From NCBI GenBank assembly GCA_030706145.1, contig JAUZPB010000041.1:1-34673 (forward strand): 34,673 nt of DNA, in the 5' to 3' direction. Made by a program: the position numbers and the translations under genes. This DNA comes from Bacteroidota bacterium. GTDB lineage: Bacteria > Bacteroidota > Ignavibacteria > Ignavibacteriales > SURF-24. The notes beneath the pieces are model-generated. The model was given only the letters and a program-made list of their open reading frames with translations. It made no database searches and was not told where the DNA came from. This document shows positions 6,304 to 34,673 of this stretch, in pieces; the first letter of the stretch is position 1, and the number at the start of each line of letters is the position of its first letter.

Positions 6304-7341
6304 ATGTATCATCCAAGACTAAAAGGCAGCCATTATCAGATGGGGCAAAAAATGGGCAAAATATTCAAAGGCTGTAATGCACAGTTTCCAATAAGGCTAG
6401 ATAAGTTCCAGAGGGGTTTTGGAAAAGAAAGCGGAAACCTCTTAAGGAAGTTTTTTCCTGAGGCAGCAGAAGAGATAAAGGGAATAACAGATGTAATTGA
6501 ATATGACAATGAACTATTTACTTCATGGATGATGTGTATGGGTTGTTGCCTGTATAATATTGACGAAATGGAATCTGTTGAAGTAAAAGGATGTACAGCC
6601 TTTAGTTTTCAGTCCGGTGATAAGACCTATTACGCAAGAAACAATGATCTTCCGCCATTTTTAAAGAAAGTAAGCAAAAGCGAGTATTATGAACCCGAAG
6701 GTAAAAGCCGTTTTATTCTGAATACATCTTCTTTTATTAACGGTGAGGAAGGAATAAACCAGCATGGACTCGTAGCAGCTATGACGTTTGTAATGCCGAA
6801 ACTCGAAGAGATAAGACCAGGCTTAAATTCGGTTTTCCTTGTGCGATATATTCTGGAAAACTGCAGGGCAGTTTCTGATGGAATCCATTCACTGAAAAAT
6901 CTTCCAATTGCTTCAAGCTGCAATATACTTCTTGCAGATAAAAGTGGAGAGATGGTTGTAGCTGAATGTAATCCAAAGGAAATAAACTTCAGGCTTCCGG
7001 AAAAAAGCAGATGTGGAAAAAACTTCATTATTACGGTAAACCATTTTACTACTGAAAAAATGAAAAAGTATGATGCAAGCGATGGCAATACCTATTTTTC
7101 AGAAGAAAGATACCTAACGGCATATAAGGCCTTGAAAGACAAAGCATATAGTGATGCATTAGGACATGCAAAGAGTATCTTAACTGGCAAAGAGGGCTTT
7201 ATGTGTCAGTATGATAAGTCGCTTAACTTTGATACTGTTTGGTCATCTATTTTTGATATTACAAATAATAAAATATTCAGAGCTGAAGGCAACCCCTTTA
7301 AGGCAAAATTCATAGAAGATAAAAGGTTAAAGACAAAGTAA
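6304..7341 (+). CDS. Peptidase C45 / acyl-CoA:6-aminopenicillanic-acid acyltransferase-like Ntn-hydrolase family protein
   Basis: N-terminal 'GSHYQMGQKMG' plus the presumptive nucleophile Cys in 'VKGCTAFSF' and an 'ARNNDL' motif, as in the C45/AAT family. No signal peptide. Confidence 0.6.
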   Translation: MYHPRLKGSHYQMGQKMGKIFKGCNAQFPIRLDKFQRGFGKESGNLLRKFFPEAAEEIKGITDVIEYDNELFTSWMMCMGCCLYNIDEMESVEVKGCTAFSFQSGDKTYYARNNDLPPFLKKVSKSEYYEPEGKSRFILNTSSFINGEEGINQHGLVAAMTFVMPKLEEIRPGLNSVFLVRYILENCRAVSDGIHSLKNLPIASSCNILLADKSGEMVVAECNPKEINFRLPEKSRCGKNFIITVNHFTTEKMKKYDASDGNTYFSEERYLTAYKALKDKAYSDALGHAKSILTGKEGFMCQYDKSLNFDTVWSSIFDITNNKIFRAEGNPFKAKFIEDKRLKTK

Positions 7342-7370: not shown

Positions 7371-7434
7371 AAAGCCAATACTTGTCAAAGCCGTTTTTTG
7401 TCAAAGCCGGTTTTTGTCAAAGCCAGTACTTGGG
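7371..7434. repeat. Four copies of AAAGCC spaced exactly 16 nt apart, with three tandem 16-nt units 'TTGTCAAAGCCGKTTT'
   Basis: AAAGCC at 7371, 7387, 7403, 7419. TTGTCAAAGCC at 7382-7392, 7398-7408, 7414-7424. The last unit overlaps the stop codon of the minus-strand PRC-barrel gene. Confidence 0.7.
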
Positions 7435-8214
7435 CAGTCCATAGTGCTCATAGAGTATTTCTTCATACTCTCTGCCCAGTGTCTCTGAAGGATTATATTC
7501 CGGGCTGTTTTTTATGCTATCGCTCGATAAAGCTATATGTACCTTAGATTCATTCCAGTTTATTTTCTCAATCCAATGTGGTGAAACAAGCACTTTTCTT
7601 CCTGAAGATATCCAGCTTCCCGTATCGACAACAATATAGCGTATAATCCATGTATTATCATCCACAATAAAATCCTTTAGATATCCTATCTCTCGGTCTG
7701 TTGACTGTATCTTATATGTATTAACTTCGCGGCTGCTTCGAAGATGAGGATCACCTTTCTTCTCCTCTTGTTTTTTCTCATCTTGTTCTTTCTCTTTACC
7801 TGAAGGAGTATCTGGATTATTCATCTGCTCAATAAGTGGTTTTTGCGTCAGATATGCAGCTCCTGGTGTTACTGCCATTCCCATTTCAAAATCCCAGTAC
7901 ATAGGCCAGTTATAATAATTAACCAGGTCAATCTCATTTTGACGTGAGACAGGTTTATCGGTCGATATATCGGGACTATTCTCTATCTGTTCTTTTGTAA
8001 GATTAACAGGAAGCCTCTTCTTATCCCACTCCGGTTTACCTATTGCTGCAGGAGAGATAAGTACCTGTTTATTAGATAACCAGTTTCCTGTTTTTACCAC
8101 GAGATATCTTATTGTCCAGTTCTGGTCATCAAAATAAAATTCATATACATTTCCAATCTCGCCATCATTTGCCAGGATATTTAATCCCGAAAGCTCTTTT
8201 ACGCTGCGAAGCAT
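7417..8214 (-). CDS. Tandem PRC-barrel domain protein with a K/E-rich linker
   Basis: Two copies of a 'DGEIG.V..F.FD...W.IRY.VV..G' module ('LANDGEIGNVYEFYFDDQNWTIRYLVV', 'STDREIGYLKDFIVDDNTWIIRYIVV'). GGAGG RBS 9 nt upstream of the ATG. Confidence 0.65.
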   Translation of the reverse strand: MLRSVKELSGLNILANDGEIGNVYEFYFDDQNWTIRYLVVKTGNWLSNKQVLISPAAIGKPEWDKKRLPVNLTKEQIENSPDISTDKPVSRQNEIDLVNYYNWPMYWDFEMGMAVTPGAAYLTQKPLIEQMNNPDTPSGKEKEQDEKKQEEKKGDPHLRSSREVNTYKIQSTDREIGYLKDFIVDDNTWIIRYIVVDTGSWISSGRKVLVSPHWIEKINWNESKVHIALSSDSIKNSPEYNPSETLGREYEEILYEHYGLPKYWL

Positions 8215-8406: not shown

Positions 8407-8475
8407 ATAGCTCTATAGCTAATAGCTCTATAGCTAATAGCTCTAAGCTAATTACTCTAAACTAATAGTCAATAG
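8407..8475. repeat. Tandem 15-nt repeat (2 perfect + 2 degenerate copies) made of palindromic TAGCTA/CTATAG hexamers
   Basis: 'ATAGCTCTATAGCTA' at 8407-8421 and 8422-8436. Degenerate copies at 8437-8450 and 8451-8464. Lies 50-115 nt upstream of the 8522 start. Confidence 0.7.
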
Positions 8476-20534: not shown

Positions 20535-20571
20535 ATAAAAAAACCGCAGCTAATTTTTTGTAACTGCGGTT
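20535..20571 (-). terminator. Rho-independent terminator after the flotillin gene (minus strand)
   Basis: 8-bp stem AACCGCAG (20542-20549) / CTGCGGTT (20564-20571), 14-nt loop. Read on the minus strand it is followed directly by U7 (A7 at 20535-20541). Confidence 0.6.
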
Positions 20572-27592: not shown

Positions 27593-27680
27593 TGCAGACT
27601 CCATATTTGTTTATTTAAACTGTAGAAAACTAGATCACACAAAAGATTGAATTACAAAAACTGAATTACAAAACACTTAA

Positions 27681-29189
27681 TTACATTTGTTTTTGAAATA
27701 CAACAGGCTTTGTATTTGGACTAACCTCAACCGACAGAGCATTTACTCTGTTATTCATATCTTTAATAAAAACAGTTTTCCATCCTGCATGCTCTGCAGG
27801 ATGATATAATTCAAATGCATCTTCCCCCATATAATTCAAGGGACAATCATAATTGTCTACTTTTACTTTTAATGAATCATTTTCAACTTTAACACATAAA
27901 GATCCATAACCCTGACTTACATAAGTCCCTGCACTTTGCTCTAGAAGTAGAGATGGCACCTTTGCATTTTCAACTTTATTATTTTTTTCCTCCTCCAAAA
28001 TTTGTTTCATCTGCGCTTCATAGAGTGCAAGTGCTTTTTGCTGCCAATCTATAGGATCAAGTTTCAGAATTTTATCCATCATATATCTTTCCAAAACATC
28101 AACAAAGGGGGTCCCGTTTAGATTTGCAAGAATTACTATCCCAATTTTTTCTTTGGGCATAAAAGTAACCTTTGAAGTAAAGCCGTATAAAACCCCACCA
28201 TGGTATATGTGCAGATAACCCCTGTAGTAATCAATCATCCATCCCATTCCATAGTTAGCATATGATATCTCGGACCTCGGGGTTTGTCCTGGAATAACTA
28301 CCTGGGGAGATTGTAACTGCTGTAAGCTTCTTGGACTTATAAGAGAGCTGTCGTGAACCTTTCCACTATTCAAATTGAACTCTACCCATTTTAACATATC
28401 ATCTACATTTGAAATAATGCAGCCTGCAGCTCCTAGTATATATGCATTGTGAAATTCCATCTTCTCAGGATCTTTATCCCAGATTATGTATGGCGTTGCA
28501 CAATCTGTTTTGTCTATAATATCATTAAAAGAAAGCTGAGTACTTTTCATTTCAAGAGGATCAAGTATTCTTTTTCTTATTAGGTCTTCCCAGGAGGTAG
28601 TACCCTCTCTTTCTGCAATCATATCTCCTGCTACAGTGTAGGCTTCATTACAATATTGCCACAATGTTCTAAAATCCAGATTAGGTTCAAAGTACCTGAA
28701 GCATCTACGAACATCGCGCCTGTCAGCAGGTGGATTCAAACTAAAGAACTTCTGCCGGGGTATGCCTGTACGGTGTGTAAGTAAATCCCTTAGTGTAACT
28801 TTTCCACTAATAAGTGAATCGTACATCTTAAAATCAGGAAAATAGTTTTCAAGAGGGACGTCAAAACTCATTTTCTTTTCCTCTACAGCCATAGCTGCCA
28901 GAGTTGCTGTAAAGGCCTTAGAAGATGAGCCTATTGAAAACAGTGTTTTAGGTGTTACTTTTTCTTTTGTCTTTAGGTCTTTATATCCAAACCCTTTACT
29001 GTAAATGACATTGCCATCTTTAATAATTCCTACTGCAAGTCCGGGTATGTCCCACTTTTGCATTGCTGTATCAATAAAGGAATCAATTTCCTTTATGGCC
29101 CTTATATCAGAAATGCTTTCTTGAGGTGCAGTTATTCCTGTGGCAAATAAAAGAGCTATAATAATGCTAAAAAGTTTTATTCTGTTCAT
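27681..29189 (-). CDS. Exported beta-lactamase-fold serine hydrolase (class C / PBP4-like esterase family) with extra C-terminal domain
   Basis: Signal peptide. S-x-x-K in 'GSSSKAF'. 'YANYG' (Y-x-N). 'HGG' near 'IYHGGVLYG'. Confidence 0.75.
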   Translation of the reverse strand: MNRIKLFSIIIALLFATGITAPQESISDIRAIKEIDSFIDTAMQKWDIPGLAVGIIKDGNVIYSKGFGYKDLKTKEKVTPKTLFSIGSSSKAFTATLAAMAVEEKKMSFDVPLENYFPDFKMYDSLISGKVTLRDLLTHRTGIPRQKFFSLNPPADRRDVRRCFRYFEPNLDFRTLWQYCNEAYTVAGDMIAEREGTTSWEDLIRKRILDPLEMKSTQLSFNDIIDKTDCATPYIIWDKDPEKMEFHNAYILGAAGCIISNVDDMLKWVEFNLNSGKVHDSSLISPRSLQQLQSPQVVIPGQTPRSEISYANYGMGWMIDYYRGYLHIYHGGVLYGFTSKVTFMPKEKIGIVILANLNGTPFVDVLERYMMDKILKLDPIDWQQKALALYEAQMKQILEEEKNNKVENAKVPSLLLEQSAGTYVSQGYGSLCVKVENDSLKVKVDNYDCPLNYMGEDAFELYHPAEHAGWKTVFIKDMNNRVNALSVEVSPNTKPVVFQKQM

Positions 29190-32598: not shown

Positions 32599-33579
32599 AT
32601 GAGCCAGTTATTAAAGACCGACATTTTAGTAAACAGCCTTGTAATACTTTTCCACTTCTTAAATTTCACAGTTGGATTAGCTGCGCTGTTTATTATTTTC
32701 AGGAAAGTGAGCCTTGTATCTTCTCAGATCCGCCGCTCTTTTTTTCAGCAGGCAGTTTTTTATAATCTGACACTTATACTTTCAGCTGTTACGGATTTTC
32801 TGGATTTTTTCTTCTGGAAGGTTGTTTCAAATAACATTTTCACACTTAGCATACTTTATTTTATAAATATATTTGCCTTGGCAACATATCTTATCTGGGC
32901 TCTTTCTTATGCCCAGATGGCATACAATTTTTTAGGCATTACTGAAGAGCTAAGGAAAAAAAGGTGGTTCAGGTATCTTTTTACTGCAGTAATGCTATAC
33001 CTGGTTTTCCTTTTTATAGTAAGAGTACTAAGACTAATACCAAATTTGTATTTCTTTTCCTCTCTTATTCTGGTGTTTGCAGGCTTAGGTACAGTTTTGG
33101 GGTATTCAATTTTCATCGGCCGGAAGTCAATTTCGGAGAAATTTCATGAAAGGAGAAAGGCCTTAAAGATACTTAGCAATCTTTTCATTGCCTTTAGCGT
33201 CACCAATATTTTTGTTTTCCTAAATTTCTATCCTTTTAATGTATTACCTCCACTTGCGACTAAATTTTCTTACAATGTAATGGATCTTATGTATAACTGC
33301 CTGATAATATTTTGGGCTTTGAAGTATTTAGATTCATTAAACAGATGCGAAGAGTCAACAGAAGCAGAAAGGTCATCTATTGGATCCAACATAGAAAAGT
33401 ATCAGATCTCCAAAAGGGAACTTGAAATAATCCATCTTGTATGCGCCGGAAAATCGAATCAGGAAATTGCCGATACTTTATTTATATCGCTTGGCACTGT
33501 AAAGAACCATTTGTATAACATTTATGCTAAGATTGGCATAAAAAACAGGACACAGCTTGCCAAATTATTCCAGGAATGA
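32599..33579 (+). CDS. One-component membrane regulator: 7 predicted TM helices fused to a C-terminal LuxR/GerE-type HTH
   Basis: Seven hydrophobic segments in residues 10-245. C-terminal 'ISKRELEIIHLVCAGKSNQEIADTLFISLGTVKNHLYNIYAKIG' is a LuxR-family HTH. Confidence 0.75.
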   Translation: MSQLLKTDILVNSLVILFHFLNFTVGLAALFIIFRKVSLVSSQIRRSFFQQAVFYNLTLILSAVTDFLDFFFWKVVSNNIFTLSILYFINIFALATYLIWALSYAQMAYNFLGITEELRKKRWFRYLFTAVMLYLVFLFIVRVLRLIPNLYFFSSLILVFAGLGTVLGYSIFIGRKSISEKFHERRKALKILSNLFIAFSVTNIFVFLNFYPFNVLPPLATKFSYNVMDLMYNCLIIFWALKYLDSLNRCEESTEAERSSIGSNIEKYQISKRELEIIHLVCAGKSNQEIADTLFISLGTVKNHLYNIYAKIGIKNRTQLAKLFQE

Positions 33580-33589
33580 TCCACAATTT

Positions 33590-33740
33590 TTCCCCATGTC
33601 CCCTTGTCACCCCATCCCCAAGTCCCCGTCAAGTCCCAACGCCCCTTGTCTTTGTCCCCAAGTCACCCCTTCCCAGCGCCCCTTGTCCCAGAAGCCCCTT
33701 GTCCCCCCATCCCCAAGTCCCCGTCAAGTCCCCCATCCTG
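33590..33740. repeat. Extremely C-rich (plus strand) repeat island: about 17 C3-6 tracts spaced 2-10 nt apart, including a 28-nt perfect direct repeat. Complementary strand is G-quadruplex-capable
   Basis: 'CCCCATCCCCAAGTCCCCGTCAAGTCCC' at 33610-33637 and again at 33706-33733. 'CCCCTTGTC' recurs 4 times. Almost no G on the plus strand across about 150 nt, inside an otherwise AT-rich genome. Fills the whole gap between two convergent genes. Confidence 0.85.
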
Positions 33741-33742
33741 CT

Positions 33743-34360
33743 CTAGCTTATCTCTATATCAAAGCATTGCAGAAGAGTCATTACCTCGGGCATACTAAAC
33801 TTTGCCTTCTTTATCTTGTTGAATTCAGGATTAATGTCATAGTTGCTAGCTTCCCTGAAGTCAGAGGCCGAAAGGTTGGTATTCTTAAATTTGCTTGAAA
33901 TAAAATTGGTCCCGTTAAATTTTCCTTTGCTTATATCTGCATTTTCAAAATTAACTTCCCGGGCCTCACATTCTGTTATTTCAATGCGCCTTAGATCCAT
34001 TGCAAAAAATATGGAGTAGTCTATTTTACTGCTTTCAACTTTTATCTTCACCGGTTCTTCTGCTTCTGTCCAGTTTATACCGATCATTTTACAATCAAAG
34101 AACTCACAGTCAATAAATCTGCTGCCTGTTAGTTTTACCAGCCCAAGATTGCAACTTTTGAAAGTACAGTTCTCAAACCTTACATATTTTAATTTTGTCT
34201 TCTCAAAGTTAACTTTTTCAAAAGTACATCCTGTAAATTCTATTTCCTTAAGCTCGCTTTCTGAAAGATCTTTACCATTAAAGGTTTCATTTAAATAGTA
34301 TTCTTCATCAAAGGACATTTTATTTTCACTCTCTTCATTTTGCTGATTTGGCTGGCTCAT
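33743..34360 (-). CDS. Pentapeptide-repeat protein
   Basis: Consecutive A(D/N)LxF-like pentapeptides ('FTGCTFEKVNFEKTKLKYVRFENCTFKSCNLGLVKLTGSRFIDCEFFDC', 'ENADISKGKFNGTNFISSKFKNTNLSASDF'). ATG at 34360. The ORF track start at 34375 is GTG. Confidence 0.75.
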   Translation of the reverse strand: MSQPNQQNEESENKMSFDEEYYLNETFNGKDLSESELKEIEFTGCTFEKVNFEKTKLKYVRFENCTFKSCNLGLVKLTGSRFIDCEFFDCKMIGINWTEAEEPVKIKVESSKIDYSIFFAMDLRRIEITECEAREVNFENADISKGKFNGTNFISSKFKNTNLSASDFREASNYDINPEFNKIKKAKFSMPEVMTLLQCFDIEIS

Positions 34361-34673
34361 CTTTATTTTTTCCACTTATTGTAAAATAAAACTATTGTTA
34401 TATAAAACTCCAGTGGACAAAATAACACATTTAATGCTTATTTCAATAGCCTAGTAGTTTGTTCTCCTTTTCTATATTTGAATCCATTGACTCAACAATA
34501 AGACGTAGCTTTGTGATGTTTATAAACCATGGGAATAAAATACTGGCAAATAAATGGCATTTATATTAAATTGAGCCTTGGAAAAATCGGTTCGATGTAG
34601 CAGTTTTTTTGCTTATCCTAAGATTTTTAGAAACTAAACCTATAGAAATTGTTGACCCGCTATTGGTAATTAT

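Follow-up and report, generated by a model that had tools for sequence, protein, structure and literature searches.

What is the dense island of C-runs that fills the gap between two convergent genes in a Bacteroidota metagenome-assembled genome (MAG)? The stretch analyzed here, referred to as the window, comprises all 34,673 nt of contig JAUZPB010000041.1 (assembly GCA_030706145.1), and the island lies between a gene for a GerE/LuxR-type regulator (the LuxR gene) and a gene for a pentapeptide-repeat protein. A first-pass annotation had offered three readings of it: G-quadruplex (G4) capacity on the minus strand, a Rho-utilization (rut) site on the plus strand, and a C-rich regulatory small RNA (sRNA). 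Our analysis indicates that the island is probably a non-coding, hypervariable, C-rich octamer tandem array of the class of 7–9-nt repeats with G-tracts, which includes the short tandemly repeated repetitive (STRR) sequences and the G4-forming simple sequence repeats (SSRs). The repeat class itself is already known; new here are the octamer units and the Bacteroidota host.

The island displays the testable defining features of this class. Its units of 7–9 nt run head to tail and each contains a run of at least three G or C, though the array is imperfect; it is intergenic, with the G-rich strand as sense within about 50 bp past a stop codon (8 nt after the TAG of the pentapeptide gene); and its copy number and sequence vary among close relatives at one locus. 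Dispersal is represented here by one array in the 37 kb read.

Composition and repeat structure of the island

The gap and its two genes are organized as follows:

32599–33579, plus strand: gene for a membrane-anchored GerE/LuxR-type regulator; the C-rich strand would be in its transcript
33580–33591, plus strand: 12-nt spacer TCCACAATTTTT, from the LuxR stop codon to the first C-run
33592–33734: some 17 C-rich units in an imperfect tandem array, modal spacing 8 nt; the C-rich strand is plus and the G-rich strand is minus
33600–33637, plus strand: first copy of a 38-nt higher-order repeat, with an exact 28-nt core at 33610–33637
33695–33732, plus strand: second copy of the 38-nt repeat, 95 nt downstream, with the exact 28-nt core at 33705–33732
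33735–33742, plus strand: 8-nt spacer, from the last C-run to the TAG stop of the pentapeptide gene
33743–34360, minus strand: pentapeptide-repeat protein gene; the G-rich strand would be in its transcript, from 8 nt past the stop codon

Exactly 17 runs of at least three C were counted on the plus strand between 33592 and 33734, in agreement with the roughly 17 CCC(C) runs estimated at first pass, and the resulting array of 143 nt fills, as had also been described, the 163-nt convergent gap between positions 33579 and 33743, toward which the LuxR/GerE gene and the pentapeptide-repeat gene both point. The sharp compositional anomaly claimed for the island was confirmed: its GC content is 0.63–0.64, against 0.28–0.40 in the flanks, with a GC skew of about −0.59, and no comparable density of C-runs occurs elsewhere in the window, where 150-nt stretches outside the island hold at most about five C-runs and at most six G-runs. 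The interval 33580–33745 is composed of 49% C and 11% G, so that the plus strand is indeed C-rich and G-poor, while the wording "almost no G" was slightly overstated, the G's being located in the GT and CG linkers. Six matches to a three-unit pattern were counted in the island, against none in 100 shuffles of the window. The proteins on both sides are on record for a Bacteroidota bacterium as MAG proteins of three NCBI assemblies. As for the neighboring pentapeptide protein, a 205-amino acid (aa) version is present in public records, and no match to the exact 210-aa version with a GTG start was found there.

The array is built from the units CCCCTTGT, CCCCAAGT, CCCCCCAT, CCCCGTCAAGT, CCCCAT(GT), and CCCRRCG, which on the G-rich strand take the forms GGGGACWW and ATGGGGGG, and its C-runs are separated by the linkers AAGT, TTGT, AT, GTCAAGT, and RRCG. 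The spacings between successive C-run starts are, in order, 8, 10, 6, 8, 11, 7, 14, 10, 6, 7, 8, 8, 8, 8, 8, and 11 nt. The 8-nt spacing accounts for 7 of the 16 intervals, and the 8-nt register is preserved by the pairs 10 + 6 and 14 + 10; periods of 8 and 16 were returned for the island by Tandem Repeats Finder (TRF). A recent 95-nt higher-order duplication is laid over this octamer array, its two 38-nt copies being 97% identical (one mismatch). The 28-nt repeat reported at first pass is the core of these copies; it is exact, as claimed, and its distance is 95 nt rather than about 96. No inverted repeat was found within the island, and of the palindromic arms typical of repetitive extragenic palindromic (REP)-like elements only a C arm is present in the window, without a complementary G arm.

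Length variation among close relatives

The gap between the LuxR and pentapeptide genes was compared with the same gap in six other assemblies, giving five distinct alleles in total:

Window, NCBI MAG: gap of 163 nt; reference
L001, second NCBI MAG: gap of 163 nt; island identical, with 10 single-nucleotide polymorphisms (SNPs) over 7,075 nt
L002, third NCBI MAG: gap of 66 nt; both flanking genes 100% identical
L003, Logan assembly: gap of 77 nt; about 95% nucleotide identity, with a different unit order
L256 and L257, Joint Genome Institute (JGI) and Logan: gap of 42 nt; about 93% nucleotide identity
L258, JGI: gap of 26 nt; about 93% nucleotide identity, with only CATCCCAAAGTCCCCCATCC left

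While the gap ranges over 163, 66, 77, 42, and 26 nt, the flanking genes are 92–100% identical across the alleles. In the alignment, the coding flanks are conserved together with the right border, AAGTCCCCC(C)ATCCT, which is retained in four of the five distinct alleles, and all the sequence between them is variable. The gaps of 26–77 nt in the relatives contain 2–7 C-runs, and that of L258 only 2–3. Because the 66-nt allele lies between flanking genes that are 100% identical, the array gains and loses sequence within very short evolutionary times, and no particular length is required. The L002 allele resembles a deletion between the two 38-nt copies; at the junction, 2 nt are also deleted and one substitution is present. 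An assembly artefact as the source of the island was rejected, since the array recurs unchanged in a second, independent assembly with 10 SNPs relative to the window.

In more distant LuxR homologues, at 59–61% aa identity (L004 and L005), there is no C-rich island and the downstream gene is another one. At these two loci (L004, 5000–6900; L005, 5099–6100) the gene order breaks exactly past the LuxR gene, and the pair formed by an M16 peptidase gene and LuxR is kept; what follows LuxR is either a PEGA-domain protein or a pair of unannotated proteins, each about 630 aa long. Two further candidate roles were considered and rejected. An array of binding sites for the LuxR regulator does not fit a position downstream of the regulator's own gene, nor the absence of the island in relatives keeping the regulator; and a phase-variation switch does not fit a position between two 3′ ends, where no promoter or reading frame would be affected.

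A wider family of octamer arrays

A family pattern derived from the island, CCCCWWGTCNCCCCWWCCCNNNNNCCC, was searched in a viral collection and in a bacterial collection with one genome per species. It gave a single match in the former and matched in more than 119 places, at least, in the latter. Among the matches listed, the majority are in filamentous cyanobacteria, with many per genome (Rivularia, Calothrix, Tolypothrix, Planktothrix, and other Nostocales); others come from Oscillochloris and other Chloroflexota, Blastocatellia (Acidobacteriota), Nitrospirota, and Planctomycetota, and six are Bacteroidota MAGs, including Lentimicrobiaceae. All of these groups have in common a modal spacing of 8 nt as well as the units CCCCTTGT, CCCCCCAT, and CCCCAT. 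Family arrays have a median length of 59 nt with 8 runs and a maximum of 208 nt with 29 runs, which places the array of the window (143 nt, 17 runs) toward the long end.

In the cyanobacteria, the arrays adjoin other heptamer arrays (AGGAGTT, AAAGGTC, and GGTAATT), a classical STRR landscape. A Lentimicrobiaceae contig carries CCCCTTGTCCCCAAGTCCCCCCATCCCCTTGTCCCCAAGTCCC, nearly the wording of the window, beside other arrays of 7–8-nt units, and other Bacteroidota MAGs (L222 and L228) have several arrays within a few kilobases.

Two arrangements seen at family loci deserve separate mention. In Blastocatellia and Oscillochloris MAGs (L161, 3585–3722; L205, 5567–5711; L150, 330–542) the same octamers make up inverted pairs in which a G-rich arm precedes a C-rich one. 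The arms are complementary over as much as 35 nt (100%) or 48 nt (90%), and such pairs could form long hairpins competing with G4s. In a Lentimicrobium MAG (L138, 6459–6744), a run of N has a copy of the array with its left flank on either side, that is, a scaffold gap lies at the repeat, which indicates that such arrays disturb short-read assembly.

Looser searches proved less informative. The pattern CCCCWWGTC three times with gaps was tried on viral contigs and set aside, as its matches, at least 80, fell mainly in coding tandem repeats of other kinds (collagen-like or Pro-rich) and in STRR-like arrays; the loose patterns CCCCWWGTCNCCCCN{2,12}CCCCWWGTC and CCCRRCGCCCCTTGTC gave 38 matches each on the same contigs. 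These patterns are therefore too unspecific for big collections. A metagenome scan with TTGTCCCCAAGTCNCCCC produced 59 matches, mostly by chance within genes, with a few STRR-like arrays and none from the species of the window, and a 22-nt pattern common to the window, L003, and L228 had no metagenome match. One JGI metagenome (Ga0126342, with contigs L262, L279, L305, and others) contains many copies, several of them per contig, of a roughly 90-nt dispersed repeat (...CTCCTTGTCCCCAAGTCCCCCCCTAACCCCAAGTCCCC...AAAAGGTTGTTTATGTACAC...); it was rejected as a family member, being a different element that shares the motif by chance. A literature search with the octamer strings returned only primer noise.

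Orientation relative to stop codons and predicted G-quadruplex capacity

The placement of 206 arrays in the family loci was surveyed relative to greedily called open reading frames (ORFs) of at least 100 aa. For neighboring genes that end beside an array, the stop codon is at a median of 7.5 nt when the G-rich strand is sense (n = 80), with 68% of the arrays no farther than 25 nt from it; when the C-rich strand is sense (n = 63), the median is 118 nt and 0% lie within 25 nt (Mann–Whitney p = 2e-7). All six evaluable Bacteroidota arrays obey the G-sense rule, each at no more than 24 nt from the stop, that of the window being at 8 nt. The window is unusual only in that its array fills the whole convergent gap and thus also touches the LuxR stop in C-sense.

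A G4 predictor was run on the island, as the first-pass annotation had proposed. G4Hunter gave a mean of 1.7 over 150 nt with peaks of 2.2–2.3, the only region of the window reaching 1.5, and on the G-rich strand, with its 17 G-tracts, at least three non-overlapping canonical motifs (G3+N1–7 repeated four times) were identified. No significant canonical fold was found for the minus-strand RNA (z −1.4). That the island can form G4s, or i-motifs, is thus well supported as a prediction, and the suggested G4 capacity of the pentapeptide 3′ untranslated region (UTR) gains from it; the orientation rule of the family and, by analogy, the G4s formed in vitro by sister repeats (PMC4692102) point the same way.

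Alternative explanations

No intrinsic terminator (stem-loop plus T-run) was found on either strand in 33300–34000, and terminator-like hairpins across the window are at chance level (31 found vs. about 26 expected). The sole convincing intrinsic terminator in the window, at 20542–20571 on the minus strand, lies downstream of an SPFH/Band-7 gene and has an 11-bp stem with a T-run after it. With few canonical terminators in the window, a G4 past the pentapeptide stop might have been selected as a 3′-end element that halts RNA polymerase or protects the mRNA 3′ end, replacing a hairpin terminator. The G4Hunter value of 1.7 over 150 nt and the 17 G-tracts are consistent with such an element, as are the family placement in G-rich sense at a median of 7.5 nt past the stop (24 nt or less in all Bacteroidota cases) and the finding that sister heptamer repeats are transcribed and form stable K+-dependent G4s in vitro (PMC4692102). 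For this sequence, however, the support is a prediction, and no function was assignable even in the organisms studied experimentally (PMC4692102, in its discussion). Moreover, four tracts suffice for a G4, yet there are 17 here against 2–3 in L258, and any function is therefore not kept across the species. A selected G4 element is accordingly a tentative possibility and, in our view, somewhat unlikely.

On the other strand, the C-rich tract might be a selected rut site at which Rho stops LuxR transcription and so keeps it from entering the pentapeptide gene in antisense. Its composition is the extreme of the window in this respect (C minus G of 0.42 over 78 nt, with 70 YC dinucleotides in 150 nt), the plus-strand RNA is essentially unstructured (minimum free energy of −10.5 kcal/mol for 191 nt, z +0.7), and an untranslated, unstructured RNA with C exceeding G over some 70–80 nt or more, as in rut sites, would therefore lie next to LuxR. 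The lack of an intrinsic terminator in the gap and the chance level of terminator-like hairpins throughout the window would also fit, and Bacteroidota are reported to possess Rho (PMC10284900, PMC11347177); no rho gene is present in the window. The comparative evidence, however, lends no support to this part of the first-pass annotation, whose compositional premise holds. Between flanking genes of 93–100% identity, the gaps of the relatives measure only 26–77 nt and contain 2–7 C-runs, so the C-rich tract is not maintained, and gap alleles of 26–42 nt within the species do not suggest a rut site kept by selection. In addition, the largest numbers of such arrays occur in cyanobacteria, a group without Rho (PMC13289151), and none of the 63 C-sense arrays lies within 25 nt of a stop codon, against 68% of the G-sense arrays. 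A selected Rho-dependent terminator is therefore unlikely, and Rho may well load at the island all the same, if the organism has Rho.

The two remaining explanations concern a product of the island itself. According to the first-pass annotation, it could be an independent C-rich regulatory sRNA with UCCC motifs pairing with Shine–Dalgarno (SD) sequences. Many CCCC motifs do stand in an unstructured context, and the premise that SD sequences are used in this genome was upheld: SD-like motifs (GGAG/GAGG/AGGA), several of them full GGAGG, precede 11 of the 25 genes of the window. Such a frequency is higher than is generally the case in Bacteroidota, and the MAG, labeled only at the level of the phylum, may belong to an atypical lineage. 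Nevertheless, the island had no Rfam match at the gathering threshold when the whole window was searched, and at E ≤ 10 the interval 33450–33900 gave only chance matches to fragments of eukaryotic long non-coding RNAs (mtDNA_ssA, H19_3, and ZEB2_AS1_3); nor does it show the features of the C-rich trans-acting sRNAs of the RsaE/RoxS kind. There is no stable fold, no promoter-like site upstream on the plus strand, and no terminator-like site, sequence and length are unconserved even within the species, and the known C-rich sRNAs of this type are from Firmicutes, whereas the host is a member of the Bacteroidota. An sRNA is thus very improbable. A coding role, whether as a Pro-rich small protein (33576–33746) or as a Gly-rich read-through extension of the pentapeptide protein past its TAG, is hardly credible. 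A 56-aa ORF does open in an ATGA overlap with the LuxR TGA (33576–33579), and a 35-aa minus-strand Gly-rich ORF continues in frame past the pentapeptide TAG (33734–33745); but neither is kept in the other alleles, where the predicted peptides change completely, the small ORFs over the island have no Pfam matches, and C- or G-rich sequence is stop-free by composition. Since the gap lengths of 163, 66, 77, 42, and 26 nt differ by non-multiples of three, coding is ruled out, and the Pro-rich ORFs are artefacts, as had been supposed. A collagen-like or Pro-rich coding remnant was rejected as well, because a reading frame cannot be held with an 8-nt unit.

The identification of the island as an STRR-class octamer array has points against it too. 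With spacings of 6–14 nt it is a degenerate array, no clean microsatellite, and it is the single one in the 37 kb of this genome that were read (the 34.7-kb window plus 2.5 kb beyond). The difference between the 163- and 66-nt alleles may be due in part to a collapse of the 38-nt copies during assembly, and the three MAGs with near-identical flanks all come from one study; simple collapse, however, would not give the 2-nt deletion and the substitution at the L002 junction. The orientation survey used crude ORF calls on loci that are mostly cyanobacterial, and G4 formation is predicted and any effect on the transcripts putative.

Proposed mechanism and significance

From the repeat structure and the L002 junction, we infer that the length of the array would change through slipped-strand mispairing between units and, as a second route, through unequal recombination between the 38-nt higher-order copies. 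With its G-rich sense strand 8 nt past the pentapeptide stop, the array could give rise to G4s in the 3′ UTR RNA or in the non-template DNA, and on the opposite side the unstructured C-rich tract past the LuxR stop would be an incidental sequence of the Rho-loading type. Together, the G4-prone and rut-like tracts may help to separate the convergent transcripts in this gap, which lacks a hairpin terminator. Any physiological effect would most likely be a by-product of this strand asymmetry. Since the island is length-polymorphic and close relatives lack it, an essential regulatory device is unlikely.

A broader proposal would be that G-rich octamer and heptamer arrays are cross-phylum 3′-end elements without hairpins, placed in G-sense past stop codons and terminating or protecting transcripts via G4s in the RNA or the non-template DNA. 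We consider this quite improbable. If it were true, the role would apply in genomes with few intrinsic terminators or no Rho; the units shared by Cyanobacteria, Chloroflexota, Bacteroidota, and Acidobacteriota would point either to one factor that binds or processes them in all these groups or to horizontal exchange between mat-forming bacteria; and the island of the window would be an unusually expanded example between convergent genes.

The strand rule over about 200 arrays, which bears on how transcripts end in bacteria with few canonical terminators, and the sharing of units across phyla are the only parts of this work reaching beyond the locus. The island extends the G4-capable repeats of the STRR type from cyanobacteria and Xanthomonas to Bacteroidota. 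The natural allelic series, in which one gene pair is separated by 26, 42, 66, 77, or 163 nt, is suited to reporter tests of termination or stabilization, and the tendency of such arrays to break or collapse short-read assemblies is relevant to MAG quality.

Other tandem repeats in the window

Four unrelated tandem arrays with units of 15–16 nt were detected by TRF in the intergenic DNA of the window:

7371–7432: 16-nt unit TTGTCAAAGCCnnTTTT, about 4 copies, in the convergent gap between an AAT-family gene (6304–7341, plus strand) and a PRC-barrel gene (7417–8214, minus strand)
8407–8468: 15-nt unit ATAGCTCTATAGCTA, 4.3 copies, partly palindromic, in a 307-nt divergent gap upstream of a Rieske/pyridine-nucleotide oxidoreductase gene (8522)
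27639–27685: TGAATTACAAAAC, 3.2 copies, between genes of the M3 peptidase and beta-lactamase families
34377–34409: TATTGTAAAATAAAAC, 2.1 copies, directly upstream of the start of the pentapeptide gene

The first of these runs into the last codons of the PRC-barrel gene and has a TTGTCA core in common with the linkers of the island, and the second could be an operator array. The genome generally seems rich in short intergenic tandem repeats.

Comparison with known systems

Like rut sites, the tract of the window is C-rich, G-poor, and unstructured, and it would provide about 80 nt or more of untranslated RNA past a stop codon. Unlike rut sites, which are defined by function, it is unconserved among alleles, and its family thrives in cyanobacteria without Rho.

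Intergenic arrays of the heptamer TAACTGA occur in Beggiatoaceae, Cyanobacteria, and some Bacteroidetes (MacGregor 2015; PMC4679880); in the closest relatives the corresponding gap does not contain them, and their spread across phyla is unexplained, with no known transfer mechanism (PMC4679880). The island resembles them in being short, intergenic, patchy across phyla, absent in the closest relatives, and located at changes of gene order. The TAACTGA arrays differ in being AT-rich, without G-tracts, and mostly positioned just upstream of start codons, whereas the array of the window follows stop codons.

Among the cyanobacterial STRRs, STRR1, CCCCA(A/G)T, was reportedly described from Calothrix and heterocystous cyanobacteria by Mazel and coworkers in 1990, and the heptamers are said to be present in very many copies. 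The array of the window differs in being a single degenerate octamer array outside the cyanobacteria. It shares with the STRRs C-rich tandem units of 7–8 nt in the intergenic DNA of AT-rich genomes, and its octamers CCCCTTGT and CCCCCCAT are themselves abundant in Rivularia and Calothrix, next to heptamer arrays.

The repeats GGGGA(C/T)T of Nostoc PCC 7120 and GGGAATC of Xanthomonas are scattered through the genome, for the most part between genes (Rehm et al. 2015; PMC4692102). They are transcribed, form K+-dependent G4s and, on the C-strand, i-motifs in vitro, and have no identified function (PMC4692102). Their length and sequence vary extensively between close relatives at one locus, and they are preferentially found 0–50 bp past a stop codon, with the G-rich strand as the coding strand (PMC4692102). 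Unlike these heptamers, the units of the window are mixed and mostly of 8 nt (GGGGACWW and ATGGGGGG), the host is a Bacteroidota MAG, and the G4s are predicted. Like them, the island has one G-tract per short unit, is intergenic and variable in length, and lies in G-sense past a stop codon.

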